A stretch of DNA of 11,867 bases from a virus (Duplodnaviria > Heunggongvirae > Uroviricota > Caudoviricetes). Position numbers and translations under genes: made by a program. A model generated the notes under the pieces. The model had not been told where the DNA came from and did not search any database. It worked only from the letters and a program-made list of their open reading frames with translations. Location: the IMG/VR virus record IMGVR_UViG_2740892230_000035; one strand, written 5' to 3'. Shown here in pieces: positions 3,646 to 11,867 of the stretch. How positions within the stretch are numbered: position 1 is the stretch's first letter; each line of letters begins with the position of its first letter.

Positions 3646-4527
3646 TTACATAGATGTTTCGTTTAATTCTTCCCGACGAACGCTGTAAACGTCGGTGGCT
3701 TTTGCCAGCAGTTCGTCATCATCTGAAAGTTTTTGTGCAATGTATTTGTAAGCCTTATCCAGTTCGGAGACAGTGCTGTAATTCATCGCTGCGCTGGTAA
3801 AGGCCATCAGCATTTCTTCTGGCTCACGGCTATCCGCTTTACGCGTTTGCTCATCAGGCTTTTTCACTGATTTAGCGTTGATCAGACTGTTCATTCCCGC
3901 AGCCGTAGTCATTTGCGGAGTAATGTCTCGCTCAACGCGCGGTGCCGTTTCCTGTAATTCGTCAGGGGTGTAAACACCGAGAAGTACATCAGGAGCGTGC
4001 AGGCGAGCCCATCGTTTCGTGCAAAGATAGGCGAGCTGCTGGCGCGGATCCTGTTCCCACAATGGAGAGTTACGCACTCCGGCTTGCGCCATACTGATGG
4101 TAAGCTCACGTGGTTCTGCTTCTCCTTTAAGAACTGCTGACACAGTTACCGTCAGATTCGGTGATTTATCTGTTTTGCCGTTAACATTCGACCAGTCACC
4201 GCTCCAGCGATAATTCAGGCGTGTCGCCAGCAGGCTGGAAGAGGATACGACCGCGTTTACCAACTGTGCTTCGTAGCCTAACGTTCCGTTTACCACATGC
4301 GTTTTCTGCGCCACGGCGAACGGGTTCATTCCCCACTGTGCCGCCTGCATGGTCACCGCCAGGCAATCGGCAGGTTTGCCTTCAAGATGTTTCGGTACAG
4401 TCGCTTTGCTTTGTGACATCAACTCCGCGAAACGCACCAGTTGATTCATGCCCTCGGGGCTGAAGATTGCCGCAGCAGTGCCTACAGTTGCGCCTGGTTG
4501 TGATGTGATTGCGATATCATTGCTCAT
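3646..4527 (-). CDS. RecT/Bet-family single-strand annealing recombinase
   Basis: 293-aa product; GMNPFAVAQKTHVV...GYEAQL and the C-terminal ERDITP segment resemble lambda Bet/RecT as I recall them. ATG overlaps the upstream exonuclease stop as ATGA (4527..4524). Confidence 0.8.
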   Translation of the reverse strand: MSNDIAITSQPGATVGTAAAIFSPEGMNQLVRFAELMSQSKATVPKHLEGKPADCLAVTMQAAQWGMNPFAVAQKTHVVNGTLGYEAQLVNAVVSSSSLLATRLNYRWSGDWSNVNGKTDKSPNLTVTVSAVLKGEAEPRELTISMAQAGVRNSPLWEQDPRQQLAYLCTKRWARLHAPDVLLGVYTPDELQETAPRVERDITPQMTTAAGMNSLINAKSVKKPDEQTRKADSREPEEMLMAFTSAAMNYSTVSELDKAYKYIAQKLSDDDELLAKATDVYSVRREELNETSM

Positions 4528-5345
4528 ACATACATATCCTGTTTACGTGCCCAGTCAGGACGTTTAATAATTTCCACTCCGCCCCATTCATCGTTGATGC
4601 GGCATTCGTGATAGGTATTCAGATCCCGGCGGAACAGAGCGTGCCCGGCATCGACATCCGGCACATCCAGCTCGAACACGCGTACCGGATACCGACCACA
4701 ATCAATGCTTTCGCTCACGGCAAGAAAGAAAAAACCATGCGGCTGACCAGTAACCCTCATTGCGCCTTCGCGGTACATTGCGTCCTGCACGTGGTAGCGG
4801 AATTCCTCGATGTGACGTGCAAAACGCTCCATATCTGCAACCTTTTTCACGTCGACGATCACGTTGTGCTCGTTCAGCCATTTGTCTGGACGAATTCGGC
4901 ACAACTCACCAGTCTCTTCATCGTTCCAGTACATTGACGCTTCGCAGTAACCAGGTGCTTCCAGCATCCAGCGTGCCGCCGGGTGAGCCATTGCGCTATC
5001 ACGCATCAGCTCCAGTTTCCGCCACTGCTCGGCATCAAGTACCGTAATCCCCATATCCGCCACATCACGAAGAAATGCCTCTTCGTCAGCTTTACCTTGT
5101 TTCGTCCGACGATCGAATTTCGGTGAAACAATGAAGCGTTTGTCGAACTCTCCAGGCTCCAGAAGCAGACAGTGCAATGCGGTTCCCATATCCAGTGCAG
5201 ACTTTTTCTCTTCGTCTTCTGGTGCTGCCTGAACCCATTTAAGAAGCGCCGGATTCTTGGCAACCATGTCAAGTTGCGACTTACTCACGCCGTCACCGGC
5301 GTGGTAGTCTTCGTTGCTGATGTCGAAATAAATTCCCGGTTTCAT
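4524..5345 (-). CDS. RecE-like (exonuclease VIII catalytic domain type) PD-(D/E)XK exonuclease
   Basis: 273-aa product with N-terminus MKPGIYFDISNEDYHAGDGVSKSQL and a candidate active-site segment RIRPDKW...VIVDVKKV. Paired with the RecT-like gene. ATGA overlap with the upstream ORF at 5345..5342. Confidence 0.75.
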   Translation of the reverse strand: MKPGIYFDISNEDYHAGDGVSKSQLDMVAKNPALLKWVQAAPEDEEKKSALDMGTALHCLLLEPGEFDKRFIVSPKFDRRTKQGKADEEAFLRDVADMGITVLDAEQWRKLELMRDSAMAHPAARWMLEAPGYCEASMYWNDEETGELCRIRPDKWLNEHNVIVDVKKVADMERFARHIEEFRYHVQDAMYREGAMRVTGQPHGFFFLAVSESIDCGRYPVRVFELDVPDVDAGHALFRRDLNTYHECRINDEWGGVEIIKRPDWARKQDMYV

Positions 5346-8085: not shown

Positions 8086-8833
8086 GTACGATCGCTTACG
8101 TGAGCATGGTGTTGCTGTGCATGAAGAGCGGCGTGACAGCAATGGCAAAAAGGAGCAGGTCGCTAGAATTTTCAATGAACTATTTGTCCAGTTACAGGCT
8201 GCATTTCCTGCAAGCGTTTCGACCATAAGGGAGCAGAACAAACTTAATGAATTCCGTAAGCAATGGATGCTTGCGTTTCTGGAGAATGGGATCACTACAA
8301 TGGAACAGGTTAACGCTGGTATGCGCCACGCCCGCGCCAGTGAATCTCCGTTCTGGCCGTCGCCTGGGCAATTTATCAAGTGGTGCAAAGACAGCAAGAT
8401 GGTTCTTGGTGTCACCATTGACGATGTGATGGCGGAGTTTCACCGGTACAGCAAGGAAAAAAGTTTATATCCTGGCGGTCCCGAAAGATTCCCGTGGCGG
8501 CATCCGGTTATGTACTGGGTTGTATGTGATACCCGCCGCGCAATGTATCAGCGCCAGCTTAGCGAGATTGAGGTTGAGAAACACGCGCGCAGGTTGCTCG
8601 ATGATTGGGCGAAAAAGGTGGCTTCCGGACAGCAGATACCCGATCCGGTGATCAGCATACAGGCAAAGCCAGAACCCATGAGTACACCTCCGGACACAGG
8701 GAGAGACGTTTACCATCCACCAGGGCGAAGTTTCGGGTGCATGCCTAACGCCGCCACCCTGGGGGGAATAACACCGGCGCAGTGGCTGATGGAGGAATAC
8801 AGGCGGGGAAAGGCGGCAGGATTTATCAAGTAA
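8057..8833 (+). CDS. P: Lambda P-like replication protein (helicase loader)
   Basis: Central region (AFPASVSTIREQNKLNEFRKQWMLAFLENGITTMEQVNAGMRHARASESPFWPSPGQFIKWC) closely parallels lambda P as I recall it. ATG at 8057 with GAAGGGG RBS; overlaps the upstream gene by 29 nt. Confidence 0.85.
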   Translation: MKSTPELLNEYDRLREHGVAVHEERRDSNGKKEQVARIFNELFVQLQAAFPASVSTIREQNKLNEFRKQWMLAFLENGITTMEQVNAGMRHARASESPFWPSPGQFIKWCKDSKMVLGVTIDDVMAEFHRYSKEKSLYPGGPERFPWRHPVMYWVVCDTRRAMYQRQLSEIEVEKHARRLLDDWAKKVASGQQIPDPVISIQAKPEPMSTPPDTGRDVYHPPGRSFGCMPNAATLGGITPAQWLMEEYRRGKAAGFIK

Positions 8834-8837
8834 TACC

Positions 8838-8858
8838 AGCGCGATAGCGCATTTTTTT
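8838..8858 (+). terminator. Possible weak intrinsic terminator after the P-like gene
   Basis: Short GC stem GCGC-GATA-GCGC followed by a run of seven T. The stem is only 4 bp. Confidence 0.35.
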
Positions 8859-8870
8859 ACGCCTATATAA

Positions 8871-8947
8871 TTACCTGATGGGTAACAAAATATTCTTATA
8901 TCTATTGATTTTGTGCCTTATGTGGTTTTTAATTACCTTAGAGGTAA
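8871..8947 (+). promoter_or_regulatory. Internal operator-flanked promoter upstream of the DUF1064-like gene
   Basis: TTACCTGATGGGTAA (8871-8885) and TTACCTTAGAGGTAA (8933-8947) bracket -35 TTGATT (8905-8910), a 17-bp spacer, and -10 TTTAAT (8928-8933). The second dyad overlaps the -10 and the RBS of the downstream gene. Confidence 0.55.
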
Positions 8948-8950
8948 ATC

Positions 8951-9295
8951 ATGAGAAAACAGATACAGGCTCTTGGTCGACTCAAAACAGGCCAGATGAA
9001 CAAAACAGAATCTGCGTATTGCCAGTACCTTGAGCAGCGTAAACGTGCAGGGGAAGTCGCCTGGTATCGGTTCGAGGGTATCAAGCTGCGGCTGGCTGAC
9101 AACACGTTCTATACGCCCGATTTTGCTGTGATGCTCGCCACCGGCGAGATGGAACTGCACGAAGTGAAAGGTTTCTGGACCGACGACGCCAGGGTGAAAA
9201 CCAAAGTCGCCGCAGATCAGTATCCGTTCCGAATCATCGGGGTAACGGTTAAGCCAAAGAAAGCAGGTGGTGGCTGGAACATCGAAGAGTTCTGA
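8951..9295 (+). CDS. Phage protein, DUF1064-like (assignment from recall)
   Basis: 114-aa ORF with GAGGT RBS 6 nt upstream. Contains ...YTPDFAVM...ELHEVKG..., a pattern I associate with DUF1064. Confidence 0.6.
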   Translation: MRKQIQALGRLKTGQMNKTESAYCQYLEQRKRAGEVAWYRFEGIKLRLADNTFYTPDFAVMLATGEMELHEVKGFWTDDARVKTKVAADQYPFRIIGVTVKPKKAGGGWNIEEF

Positions 9296-9335
9296 ATCGA
9301 CGATCTTTTTAGTTATCAATGTAATCAATAAGTTA

Positions 9336-9344
9336 TGTGGATAA
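9336..9344 (-). promoter_or_regulatory. Consensus DnaA box (TTATCCACA on the minus strand) just upstream of the Ea22-like gene
   Basis: Plus strand reads TGTGGATAA at 9336-9344. A degenerate TTATCAATG lies at 9313-9321. A single 9-mer could be chance. Confidence 0.3.
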
Positions 9345-9356
9345 GCGAGGGTAAAG

Positions 9357-9963
9357 ATGGACGGTAATATCAAAGGGTTAGTTTCCGCCGGGCATGAGAT
9401 GGCTTCGGAACTGAAAGCTGAATGTGGTGCCGTTGATATGCGCAGCGTGGCAAAGCTGATCAGCGATTTGGCAACGCAACTGGAAGTGCAACTGGCGCGT
9501 GCTAATGCGCTGGCCGAAGACCAGCAGAAAGCGATTGAGTCAATTAAGCAGGCTGATGCGGCTGTTAAGTTGGCACACGAGAAGTTTTCGGCTCTGGCGG
9601 CGGAGAATGCGGGGCTGAATAAATTTATCGCACAGAGTTGCTACGTGTTTGATGGCGAGCAGGATGAGCTATCTGATGCGTATATCTGCGCAACAGATGG
9701 AGGGATGCCGCAAATTCCAGCCACCGATGCTTTTCTGGCTGAAATTCGTGCGGAGGCTCGCAACGAGGGGATTAACTATACCGCAAGCCGTCTTGCTGCT
9801 GCTTNNNNNNNNNNCACCAGCCACCGATGCTTTCCTGGCTGAAGTCCGGGCGCAGGGTGTGGAGATGTTCTCAGAAAAATTCGGAGGTGGCACTCCGCTA
9901 TCCAATATGGTCAAAGAGGTTGCTGCTGATTTTGCGGCGAAGCTTCGCAAAGGAGGTGAGTAG
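9357..9963 (+). CDS. ead/Ea22-like family protein with coiled-coil N-terminus; interrupted by the N-run at 9805-9814 (apparent frame shift across the gap)
   Basis: Two ORF-track pieces (9357-9842 and 9649-9963) share the repeat PATDAFLAEIRAE / PATDAFLAEVRAQ on either side of the gap. Ends ...AAKLRKGGE. Confidence 0.65.
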
Positions 9964-10173
9964 TGCGTGTGGCATGTATCGGCTTGTTNNNNNNNNNNCC
10001 ACGGATTTATCAATAAGTCTTTACGTGAAGTTTTCGACGTTACGCGCATGATTCTGTCAGCAAAAGAAGAGTTAGCTAATGAATCGCATCCGATTGATGG
10101 CCTGTCCGGTGAATATGCAGAGAAATCCCTTGAAGAATGGGCGGAACGGCTTCGCAAAGGAGGCAACCAGTGA
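9963..10173 (+). CDS. Small Ea22-region ORF (about 68 aa) interrupted by the N-run at 9989-9998; start uncertain
   Basis: GTG at 9963 preceded by AGGAGG; ends ...WAERLRKGGNQ, echoing the upstream gene end. Frame across the gap cannot be verified. Confidence 0.35.
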
Positions 10174-10577
10174 GCAAGATTGACTATCAGGCACTGCGTG
10201 AAGCGGCAGAGAAAGCCGGTGAAGATAAGTGGCAGGCTAAAAAAATAAATGGTGATTTTTTCGTTATTCGTCACGGTAGTTATACAAGACAGCATGGCTA
10301 CACATCGTATCAACCCATTGCGGAGATTGATTGTAAGCCAGTCCGGGATTTTGTTGCCAAGGCTAATCCGGCTACCGTGCTGGAATTACTGGATGAACTG
10401 GAAGCAGCAAAAAAGCGCATTGCAGAACTGGAAGCGCGGGAAATACTGCTCCCGGAACGTAGCAGCATGCTTCATCGAACAGATTTTCACGATGATTACC
10501 AAACGGTAATGGCATACAAAGTTTCTGAAGTCATCGATGCAATCCGCGCTACTGGCATTCGCATCAAAGGAGAGTGA
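10170..10577 (+). CDS. ead/Ea22-like family protein
   Basis: GTG start at 10170 with AGGAGG 7 nt upstream. Product MSKIDYQALREAAEKAGEDKW...ANPATVLELLDELEAAKKRIAELEA matches the conserved Ea22-like pattern as I recall it. Confidence 0.65.
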   Translation: MSKIDYQALREAAEKAGEDKWQAKKINGDFFVIRHGSYTRQHGYTSYQPIAEIDCKPVRDFVAKANPATVLELLDELEAAKKRIAELEAREILLPERSSMLHRTDFHDDYQTVMAYKVSEVIDAIRATGIRIKGE

Positions 10578-10614
10578 GATGAACGNNNNNNNNNNAACGC
10601 AGGAGAACAAAACG

Positions 10615-10791
10615 ATGAAAAACCGTAAAGCAAAACGACTTTTTTTACAGCGACCTGTGCGTGTGGTGGAGCTGGTTATCAGCAACCATAAGATAGCGGT
10701 ACTCCATCCATTTGGTCAGGTGGCTTTTGCCGCAAAGCGTAAGCCTAGCGCGTCACAGAACAGGCGGAAGAAAGGGTACGCAGTAAGATGA
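10615..10791 (+). CDS. Small basic hypothetical protein (58 aa), paralog A
   Basis: ATG with AGGAG 9 nt upstream. Product MKNRKAKRLFLQRPVRVVELVISNHKIAVLHPFGQVAFAAKRKPSASQNRRKKGYAVR. Confidence 0.45.
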   Translation: MKNRKAKRLFLQRPVRVVELVISNHKIAVLHPFGQVAFAAKRKPSASQNRRKKGYAVR

Positions 10792-10979
10792 AAAACCGTA
10801 AAGCTAAGATGCTTATCTCCCGTGTATACAGACTTTGCTATCCCAGCCAGTGGTTGAGAGTTAGCAATCGCCGTGTGGTGTTGTTTTCATTTTCTGGAAT
10901 TGCCAGAGAGGGAATCAAAGATAAGCGCAGCGCGGCGCAAAACCGCTGGAAAAACCACTTGCGCACTAAAGGAGAGTGA
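10788..10979 (+). CDS. Small basic hypothetical protein (63 aa), paralog B
   Basis: ATG overlaps paralog A stop as ATGA. Product begins MKNRKAK, like paralog A. Overlaps an out-of-frame N-terminal extension of the next ORF, so one of the two readings is spurious. Confidence 0.4.
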   Translation: MKNRKAKMLISRVYRLCYPSQWLRVSNRRVVLFSFSGIAREGIKDKRSAAQNRWKNHLRTKGE

Positions 10980-10980
10980 T

Positions 10981-11496
10981 ATGGCGTTAACACACCGCGA
11001 ACTCTGTCAGATTGCGTATAAGTTCCTTAAGCGCAACGGGTTCAAGGTTTGTTTTCATGACCGCTTTATAGCTGTAACCAGTACCGGAGAACAGCCAGAT
11101 GCTATGGGATTCAGAAATTCAGCATCATGCCTGATAGAGGCGAAGTGTTCTCGTGCTGACTTGTTGGCAGATAGAAAAAAGCGTTTTCGTAAAAATCCAT
11201 CTCTTGGAATGGGCGACTGGCGATTCTTTATTAGTGAGCCGGGAATTATTTCAGTTGAGGATTTACCACCTGGCTGGGGATTACTTCACGTTGTTAACGG
11301 AAGAGTACGGAAAGTACATGGGTGGCCCAAGGGTAATTGCTGTTGGGGTAATCCTGACGATAAGCCATTTACTGGAAATAAGCAGGTTGAATGCGATTAC
11401 ATGTTATCTGCATTAAGGCGCATGGAGTTGAGAGGGCACCTTAATGAAATATATGACGGTGTAATTGTTAATAAGAAAGAAGGAAACGCGGCATGA
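10981..11496 (+). CDS. Hypothetical protein (172 aa), possible PD-(D/E)XK-type nuclease fold
   Basis: ATG at 10981 with AGGAG RBS. Segment EQPDAMGF...CLIEAKCSRAD fits a D...E-x-K motif. Fold assignment is tentative. Confidence 0.65.
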   Translation: MALTHRELCQIAYKFLKRNGFKVCFHDRFIAVTSTGEQPDAMGFRNSASCLIEAKCSRADLLADRKKRFRKNPSLGMGDWRFFISEPGIISVEDLPPGWGLLHVVNGRVRKVHGWPKGNCCWGNPDDKPFTGNKQVECDYMLSALRRMELRGHLNEIYDGVIVNKKEGNAA

Positions 11497-11867
11497 TCAC
11501 TATTACCAAAGAGCGACTGCTGACAATCAAGCAGTGGCGCGAAACATACGGACCGGGTAGCAACGTTGTACTGCCAGCAGAAGAAGCGGAAGAACTGGCA
11601 CGAATTGCTCTGGCATCGCTGGAAGCAGAGCCTGTAAACCAAACTTACAACTTACCAGAATTAATCGAAGGCATGGAAGTTTCCATTGATGTAAGCACTT
11701 GTGATGCTGATTTAGGTAATCGCTATTTCGGCACCGTCACCGAGGCGTTAGAACTTGATACGGCCAAGAATGGTTACATCCTCCTAGTTCAGGACGCAGA
11801 GCCAAACTTCGATGTAAATGGCAACTCTCCGGGAACTCCGGATAGTTGGATAAGCTGTAGTGAGCGA
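11493..11867 (+). CDS. Hypothetical phage protein, 5' partial (runs off the window end); possibly the N-terminal part of a DUF551-type protein
   Basis: ATG at 11493 overlaps the upstream stop as ATGA. Open frame of 125 codons to the window edge: MITITKERLLTIKQWRETYGPGSNVVLPAEEAEELARIALASLEAEPV... Not in the ORF track because it has no stop in the window. Confidence 0.6.
   Translation, partial: MITITKERLLTIKQWRETYGPGSNVVLPAEEAEELARIALASLEAEPVNQTYNLPELIEGMEVSIDVSTCDADLGNRYFGTVTEALELDTAKNGYILLVQDAEPNFDVNGNSPGTPDSWISCSER

Follow-up and report, generated by a model that had tools for sequence, protein, structure and literature searches.

Caulobacter MmcB is an endonuclease of the PD-(D/E)XK class under SOS control; it confers protection from mitomycin C and cisplatin, and a part in crosslink repair is proposed for it (PMC9578287, citing Lopes-Kulishev 2015 and Price 2018). 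Proteins of this kind carry the domain PF06319 (DUF1052), which is represented among solved structures by 3DNX, the protein SPO1766 of Ruegeria pomeroyi. Here we analyse, by computation, a gene near the end of an 11,867-nt stretch of Caudoviricetes DNA (IMG/VR record IMGVR_UViG_2740892230_000035; "the window" denotes this whole stretch). From sequence and predicted structure, its 171-residue prophage product is very probably a nuclease of the PD-(D/E)XK fold, with MmcB as its nearest bacterial relative; the family to which it belongs is best described as a divergent relative of the MmcB-like nucleases, an unnamed sister family that falls below Pfam's own threshold. The gene has the following features.

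10969-10974, + strand: Shine-Dalgarno sequence AAGGAG, 6 nt 5' of the ATG, as read from the sequence.
10981-11496, + strand: gene for the predicted 171-amino-acid (aa) MmcB-like PD-(D/E)XK nuclease, stop codon TGA; equal to gp17 of Escherichia phage TL-2011b, annotated there as 'hypothetical protein' with the same start.
11089-11160, + strand: predicted catalytic motif E37-x-P39-D40...E53-x-K55-x-S57-R58-x-D60 (codons 37-60), from conservation, strand positions and the 3DNX/MmcB alignment.
11206-11226, + strand: second conserved motif G-M-G-D-W-R-F (codons 76-82), on the fourth core strand (80-85), from conservation and the structural model.
11272-11286, + strand: third conserved motif G-W-G-L-L (codons 98-102), at the start of a strand (100-105), invariant in the narrow family alignment A1.

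The last piece of the window (10596-11867) is 100% identical to positions 9374-10645 of TL-2011b, a lambdoid prophage from an E. coli O103:H25 outbreak strain. The TGA that ends the upstream small open reading frame (ORF), at 10977-10979, falls between the Shine-Dalgarno sequence and the ATG of the nuclease gene. A longer product of 207 aa, from a GTG at 10873, was considered and rejected: this start overlaps the upstream ORF, the N-termini of homologues lend it no support, and the Shine-Dalgarno sequence precedes the ATG at 10981. An earlier note on this DNA, made from its letters alone, had given the product 172 aa, one more than the ORF encodes; the D...E-x-K pattern on which that note suspected a nuclease is present, as PD(39-40)...IEAK(52-55).

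In the protein the catalytic motif reads P39-D40...I52-E53-A54-K55-C-S-R-A-D60, with the codons of D40, E53 and K55 at 11098-11100, 11137-11139 and 11143-11145, respectively. A loose D-x(8-25)-[DE]-x-K pattern arises in 60% of shuffles of this protein, and the motif alone is therefore weak evidence for a nuclease; the strict form, PD followed by a hydrophobic residue and E-x-K, arises in 0.9%. The case is carried by conservation and fold. We used a narrow family profile (A1) and a wider one (A2) built from 109 relatives of 32-60% identity: D40, D60, G78 and R81 are invariant across A2, and H5, E37, P39, E53, K55, S57, R58, D64, K67, W99, G100, L101 and E137 are conserved in at least 90% of it. 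In the second motif G76, G78, D79, W80, R81 and F82 are invariant in A1, and the invariance of G78 and R81 extends to A2.

The AlphaFold2 (AF2) model, with a predicted local distance difference test score (pLDDT) of 90 and a predicted template-modelling score (pTM) of 0.84, has an alpha-beta-beta-beta-alpha-beta core: helix 5-18; strands 23-26, 41-45 and 48-54; helix 58-65; and strand 80-85. D40 stands directly ahead of strand 2, and E53 and K55 stand at the end of strand 3. The best Foldseek match is 3dnx (E 5.8e-6), the closest solved structure, followed by R2 endonuclease, AF1548, Bax1 and Hjc; the weaker matches include the XisH-family structures 2inb and 2okf, and those in the BFVD collection of viral structure models include proteins called 'MmcB-like DNA repair protein'. 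A single-sequence search of PDB sequences returned only noise, and the narrow profile A1 reached 3DNX at E 0.42, the wider A2 at E 4.9e-6. Profile-to-profile comparison (hhalign) against 17 PF06319-bearing sequences gave 97.1% probability and E 7.1e-11 over 86 columns; the MmcB profile used is shallow and covers the N-terminal two thirds, being made of N-terminal fragments of closely related proteins, because a search with a 57-residue fragment of 3DNX yielded short fragments of close relatives only. This alignment spans the catalytic block (RVD...IECKSSRADF on the MmcB side, PD...IEAKCSRADL in our protein), and extends in the direction of the second motif, for which a match can be made by eye (CDRFFW vs GDWRFF). 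Weak PF06319 hits appear for 34 of the 109 relatives (best E 6.5e-5). The PD-(D/E)XK fold is thus supported by structure prediction, in which the AF2 model shows its core, by fold search and by profile comparison.

The comparison with MmcB-like proteins, the nearest known kind, shows likeness in the active site and difference around it. Both are small single-domain proteins; both have the catalytic block D...I-E-C/A-K-S-S/x-R-A/S-D-F/L; and both have a second motif [CG]-D-[RW]-[FR]-F, in which G-M-G-D-W-R-F of the phage protein corresponds to C-D-R-F-F-W. Unlike MmcB, the phage protein has E37-x-P-D in place of R-V-D, an insertion of eight residues ahead of the second motif, and a conserved GWGLL strand with a longer C-terminal helical tail; and whereas MmcB is an SOS-regulated chromosomal gene, the phage family is found mostly in phages and prophages, within an early operon and with no LexA box. 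Archaeal Hjc (PF01870) also shares the PD-(D/E)XK core, a 'PD...(I/L)E-x-K-S' motif and similar size. Weak Hjc hits appear for 59 of the 109 relatives (best E 1.3e-4), and Hjc chains can be aligned with the family profile across PD...ExK (E about 0.1); a match at the family-model threshold of PF01870 combined with Hjc as the closest fold was not found. The protein is a full-length member of PHROG 9263 and PHROG 631 (E 2.6e-123 and 1.4e-94, respectively), both of 'unknown function', and the link to MmcB-like nucleases is absent from the PHROG annotation.

In position, the gene resembles the nin and exo-xis genes of lambda (NinB, NinG/Rap, RusA, NinX and Ea22): it occupies the same niche, the interval between replication genes and late regulator in TL-2011b, and that between exo and xis in Shiga toxin (Stx) phages, with Ead/Ea22-, DUF551- and NinX-like flanks. 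It has no homology to these proteins at the level of sequence, and none of the characterised ones is known to be an MmcB-like nuclease. The gene of TL-2011b belongs to a long rightward early operon, where it follows the replication genes and is surrounded by accessory genes of the Ead/Ea22-, DUF551- and NinX-like kinds. A consensus scan of 8800-11867, itself weak evidence, found no promoter-like or terminator-like site on the + strand, and TL-2011b has its first + strand terminator beyond gp20. Placed in this early operon with neither a promoter nor a terminator to itself, the gene is presumably expressed early after infection or induction. Around the relatives lie early and recombination genes of phages (exo, SSB, RecT, RusA, NinB, NinG, RdgC and DNA methylases), and some relatives stand in a variable accessory region with Lar, DNA methylases and dATP/dGTP pyrophosphohydrolase.

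For catalysis, substrate and biological role we infer from these likenesses. D40, E53 and K55, together with E37, would hold a catalytic metal and a water molecule, and the enzyme would cleave DNA at a phosphodiester bond; the analogy with MmcB, and the more distant one with the Hjc resolvases, makes damaged or branched DNA the most likely substrate, rather than a specific sequence. The protein would then assist phage DNA repair, recombination or replication as a helper that the phage can do without. We consider it probable, though well short of certain, that it is an accessory, early-expressed, metal-dependent endonuclease that aids repair or recombination of phage DNA and belongs to an MmcB-like sister family, with no dedicated partner. 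The narrower proposal that the enzyme is a phage-borne counterpart of MmcB, which repairs crosslinked or otherwise damaged phage DNA, we regard as rather unlikely.

Several observations weigh against the repair or recombination role. The protein itself matches nothing among the Pfam and NCBIfam models even at E <= 1, PF06319 included, and the MmcB link consequently comes from profiles and structure. No LexA box of the E. coli type is seen upstream, and the one near-match inside the gene is within the count expected by chance. To our knowledge, the biochemical substrate of MmcB has not been established. No member of the family with demonstrated nuclease activity and no paper on the family was found; the literature on MmcB, DUF551, the exo-xis region and TL-2011b yielded no paper that mentions the gene. 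The genomic context is heterogeneous and thus gives weak functional guidance. Finally, members of the family often occur together with RusA (in the E2863 prophage, Vibrio phage X29 and a Providencia prophage) and elsewhere with NinG, so the protein is not simply the junction resolvase of its phage.

That co-occurrence, being frequent, makes the family unlikely as sole resolvase, and it bears most directly on the idea that the protein resolves Holliday junctions for its phage as an Hjc-type dimer, cutting the four-way structures generated by RecT and exonuclease before packaging. The weak Hjc hits among relatives, the profile alignment over PD...ExK and the Hjc structures among the fold matches all speak for this idea, as does the gene content of TL-2011b, where RecT and exonuclease VIII are present and RusA, NinG and RuvC are not annotated; against it, the window holds another candidate, a DUF1064 gene with its own PD...ExK motif (described below), and we judge the resolvase explanation to be unlikely. 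An offensive or counter-defence nuclease, which degrades the DNA of host or competitor or the nucleic acid of a host defence and takes no part in phage DNA repair, would suit the early expression and the many virulent carriers (Ackermannviridae, Vibrio and Tenacibaculum phages) besides the temperate ones; some relatives adjoin Lar, DNA methylases and dATP/dGTP pyrophosphohydrolase, typical anti-restriction company, and one is fused to the pyrophosphohydrolase. However, PADLOC shows no similarity to a known defence or anti-defence nuclease, the chromosomal copies conserved by vertical descent in Terriglobales, close to recR, ybaB and dnaX, argue for a housekeeping role on DNA, and the closest characterised relative is a repair protein (PMC9578287); an offensive role seems slightly less likely still than resolution of junctions. 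The XisH-family structures among the weaker fold matches raise the further idea of a protein that binds DNA without catalysis and has only retained the nuclease fold, like the XisH-type excision controllers, but E37, D40, E53 and K55 are invariant or nearly so across the family, which would not be expected of an inactive scaffold, and we give this idea very little weight.

The earlier note also pointed to a second gene, overlapping the nuclease gene and running off the window; this overlap can be read in the sequence.

11493-11496, + strand: ATGA, in which the stop codon of the nuclease gene overlaps the start codon of the next gene, as read from the sequence.
11493-11867, + strand: first 125 codons of a mosaic DUF551-domain gene (TL-2011b gp18, 186 aa), ended by the window edge.

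From this arrangement the note had raised a functional partnership: toxin-antitoxin, exclusion or recombination pair. Completed from TL-2011b, the downstream gene encodes 186 aa and carries PF04448 (DUF551) at residues 118-183 (E 9.3e-21); the protein falls into PHROG 60/3323/660, of unknown function, and the gene after it in TL-2011b is NinX-like. Its 48-residue N-terminal module is common to proteins of 123-309 aa in other E. coli phages, its middle is variable, and in E. coli copies DUF551 may be C-terminal, may form a separate second gene (E2863, O157:H7) or may be absent (a plasmid of strain M18). The note had also allowed that the pair might match well-characterised nin proteins; neither the nuclease nor the visible part of its neighbour gives a Pfam match to NinB, NinG or RusA.

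For a two-gene module, with the nuclease as toxin or exclusion effector and the DUF551 protein as its antitoxin, inhibitor or specificity partner, one may cite the 4-nt overlap, the DUF551 genes that adjoin or lie near the nuclease gene in many E. coli prophages, the DUF551 gene directly upstream of the nuclease gene in the distantly related Vibrio phage X29, and two natural fusions of nuclease and DUF551 (P0213, a relative of 36% identity, and P0020, from E. coli). The neighbour, however, is not conserved. The overlap of four nucleotides recurs in 17 of 37 related loci of other species, and the genes overlapped are unrelated: mosaic 'PVAW'-type proteins of 70-406 aa, RusA in Providencia, an 868-aa TraC-like ATPase in Pantoea and small CxxC zinc-finger proteins in Salinicola; in several of the 37 no gene overlaps or abuts the nuclease gene, and within E. 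coli the downstream product itself ranges from 106 to 309 aa. Tallied by Pfam, 144 ORFs lying up to three genes from a homologue at 24 loci show no dominant family (Ead/Ea22 5, C5-methylase 3, DUF551 3, RdgC 2, NinB 2, Dam 2, then others). Homologues stand without such a neighbour in virulent Ackermannviridae, where they adjoin a primase gene, and are solitary in acidobacterial chromosomes. Overlaps of this length are also routine in the window, with at least four cases (e.g. RecT/exonuclease VIII and the small ORFs at 10788); PADLOC models match neither the nuclease nor the downstream protein; and DUF551 is described as a portable module that occurs in fusion with many unrelated proteins (PMC10834534, PMC4776307). 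Because the neighbours vary, overlaps are routine, no promoter or terminator belongs to the pair (the consensus scan again being weak evidence), PADLOC finds no match and homologues stand alone, a dedicated pair, whether toxin-antitoxin or exclusion, is not supported and we reject it. The fusions and the arrangement in X29 leave it a small opening, and we hold the two-gene module to be improbable. The ATGA overlap reflects compact packing of the operon, possibly with translational coupling.

The family of this predicted repair or recombination nuclease is large. A search of 5.8 billion proteins returned 325 relatives, and those with source names are all labelled hypothetical or uncharacterised except for two ead/Ea22-like fusions; searched exhaustively with the profile, the cluster representatives gave 3,264 clusters (50% identity) at E <= 1e-3, and 2,468 at E <= 1e-10. 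The gene is present in 642 deposited phage records, including Stx-converting phages, P1-like phage-plasmids, Ackermannviridae and Vibrio phages; the family thus spans virulent phages (Ackermannviridae, Vibrio, Tenacibaculum) as well as temperate ones. It is carried by 931 of 5,426 complete E. coli genomes (about 17%), and 250 of 1,299 copies in E. coli are borne on plasmids of about 57-125 kb (e.g. NZ_AP018798.1, 79974-80918). Many carrier plasmids measure about 95-100 kb, as P1-like phage-plasmids do, and the gene is also present in some deposited P1 records. Fusions join the nuclease domain to a TniB-like ATPase, a dATP/dGTP (MazG-like) pyrophosphohydrolase, the N-terminal region of Ead/Ea22, and DUF551 (P0136, P0227, P0091, P0213 and P0020).

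Chromosomal homologues of 35-39% identity occur with conserved synteny in Acidobacteriota (Terriglobales; loci L040, L046, L050 and others, with the match at about 4001-4555). A protein of about 550 aa, CHAD-like from its N-terminal sequence, lies upstream, and recR, ybaB and dnaX are close by; this suggests that the Terriglobales copies are a vertically inherited, housekeeping version of the family.

Prophages of the O157:H7 type carry a 2-nt deletion at the equivalent of window positions 11136-11137, within the I-E-A-K codons, where CTGATAGAGGCGAAG becomes CTGAT--TGGCGAAA. The deletion destroys the codon of E53, and the protein ends at 58 aa (WP_001356547.1; locus L088, 2501-2677). This allele is found in 215 of the 5,426 complete E. 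coli genomes, mostly O157:H7, and the copies sampled are all chromosomal; the intact site is found in 710. As these 215 genomes carry a deletion in the region of the E53 codon, the nuclease gene is dispensable for lysogeny.

In RefSeq, the Prokaryotic Genome Annotation Pipeline (PGAP) calls intact 171-aa copies 'frameshifted' pseudogenes of about 179 bp, one of them 100% identical to the window. The miscalled copies, equivalents of window 10981-11496, are the following.

Locus L087, 12501-12679: intact copy labelled as a pseudogene.
Locus L089, 2501-2679: intact copy labelled as a pseudogene.
Locus L090, 2501-2694: intact copy labelled as a pseudogene.

The miscall probably arises because the 58-aa O157 fragment is the protein taken as reference; no NCBI source stands behind the cluster of full-length E. 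coli proteins (P0002, 1,363 members). Our comparison thereby exposes a systematic error, in which intact copies are labelled as frameshifted pseudogenes.

The finding is no new kind of system; it is an uncharacterised sister family of a known enzyme kind. Its worth is for annotation and for the testable link that it draws from a very common Stx-phage gene to DNA damage processing. The family is common, labelled hypothetical and without a Pfam or NCBIfam model, and its placement beside MmcB offers a testable function, for which the O157:H7 deletion allele provides a natural knockout. Agents that induce lambdoid and Stx prophages (mitomycin C, UV and peroxide) also damage the prophage genome. 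If the enzyme were indeed a phage counterpart of MmcB, an early damage-processing nuclease would mean more viable phage after induction and thereby wider spread of Stx phages; the adjacency and fusions with DUF551 would reflect a portable targeting domain that brings early enzymes to a common site; and the O157:H7 lineage would be a natural loss-of-function mutant.

With respect to the rest of the window, four runs of exactly 10 N (651-660, 9805-9814, 9989-9998 and 10586-10595) identify it as a scaffold of separate pieces. The piece 1-650 is non-phage; the piece 661-9804 matches TL-2011b from base 2 at 99.4%, with the alignment ending at window 9756 (record 9113); the piece 9815-9988 matches TL-2011b 9072-9245 and overlaps the preceding piece; and the piece 9999-10585 has no counterpart in TL-2011b. 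Ead/Ea22-like segments are repeated across two of the N runs at 9357-10577, where PATDAFLAE... occurs twice and the ORF 10137-10577 matches PF13935 (E 1.9e-18); the assembly of this repetitive, mosaic region is probably collapsed or broken.

Two further observations concern small genes upstream of the nuclease gene on the + strand. At 10615-10791 and 10788-10979 lie tandem ORFs of 58 and 63 aa, which share an ATGA overlap, both begin MKNRKAK and are rich in basic residues; the second stops 1 nt short of the nuclease gene, neither has a Pfam match, and TL-2011b annotates only the first. At 8951-9295 a 114-aa ORF matches DUF1064 (PF06356, E 2.3e-7) and has a PD...ExK-type motif of its own, TPDF...ELHEVKG; judged by its sequence, it looks like a second small nuclease-like gene of the same operon. 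In Vibrio phage X29 DUF551, the MmcB-like gene, DUF1064 and RusA stand consecutively.
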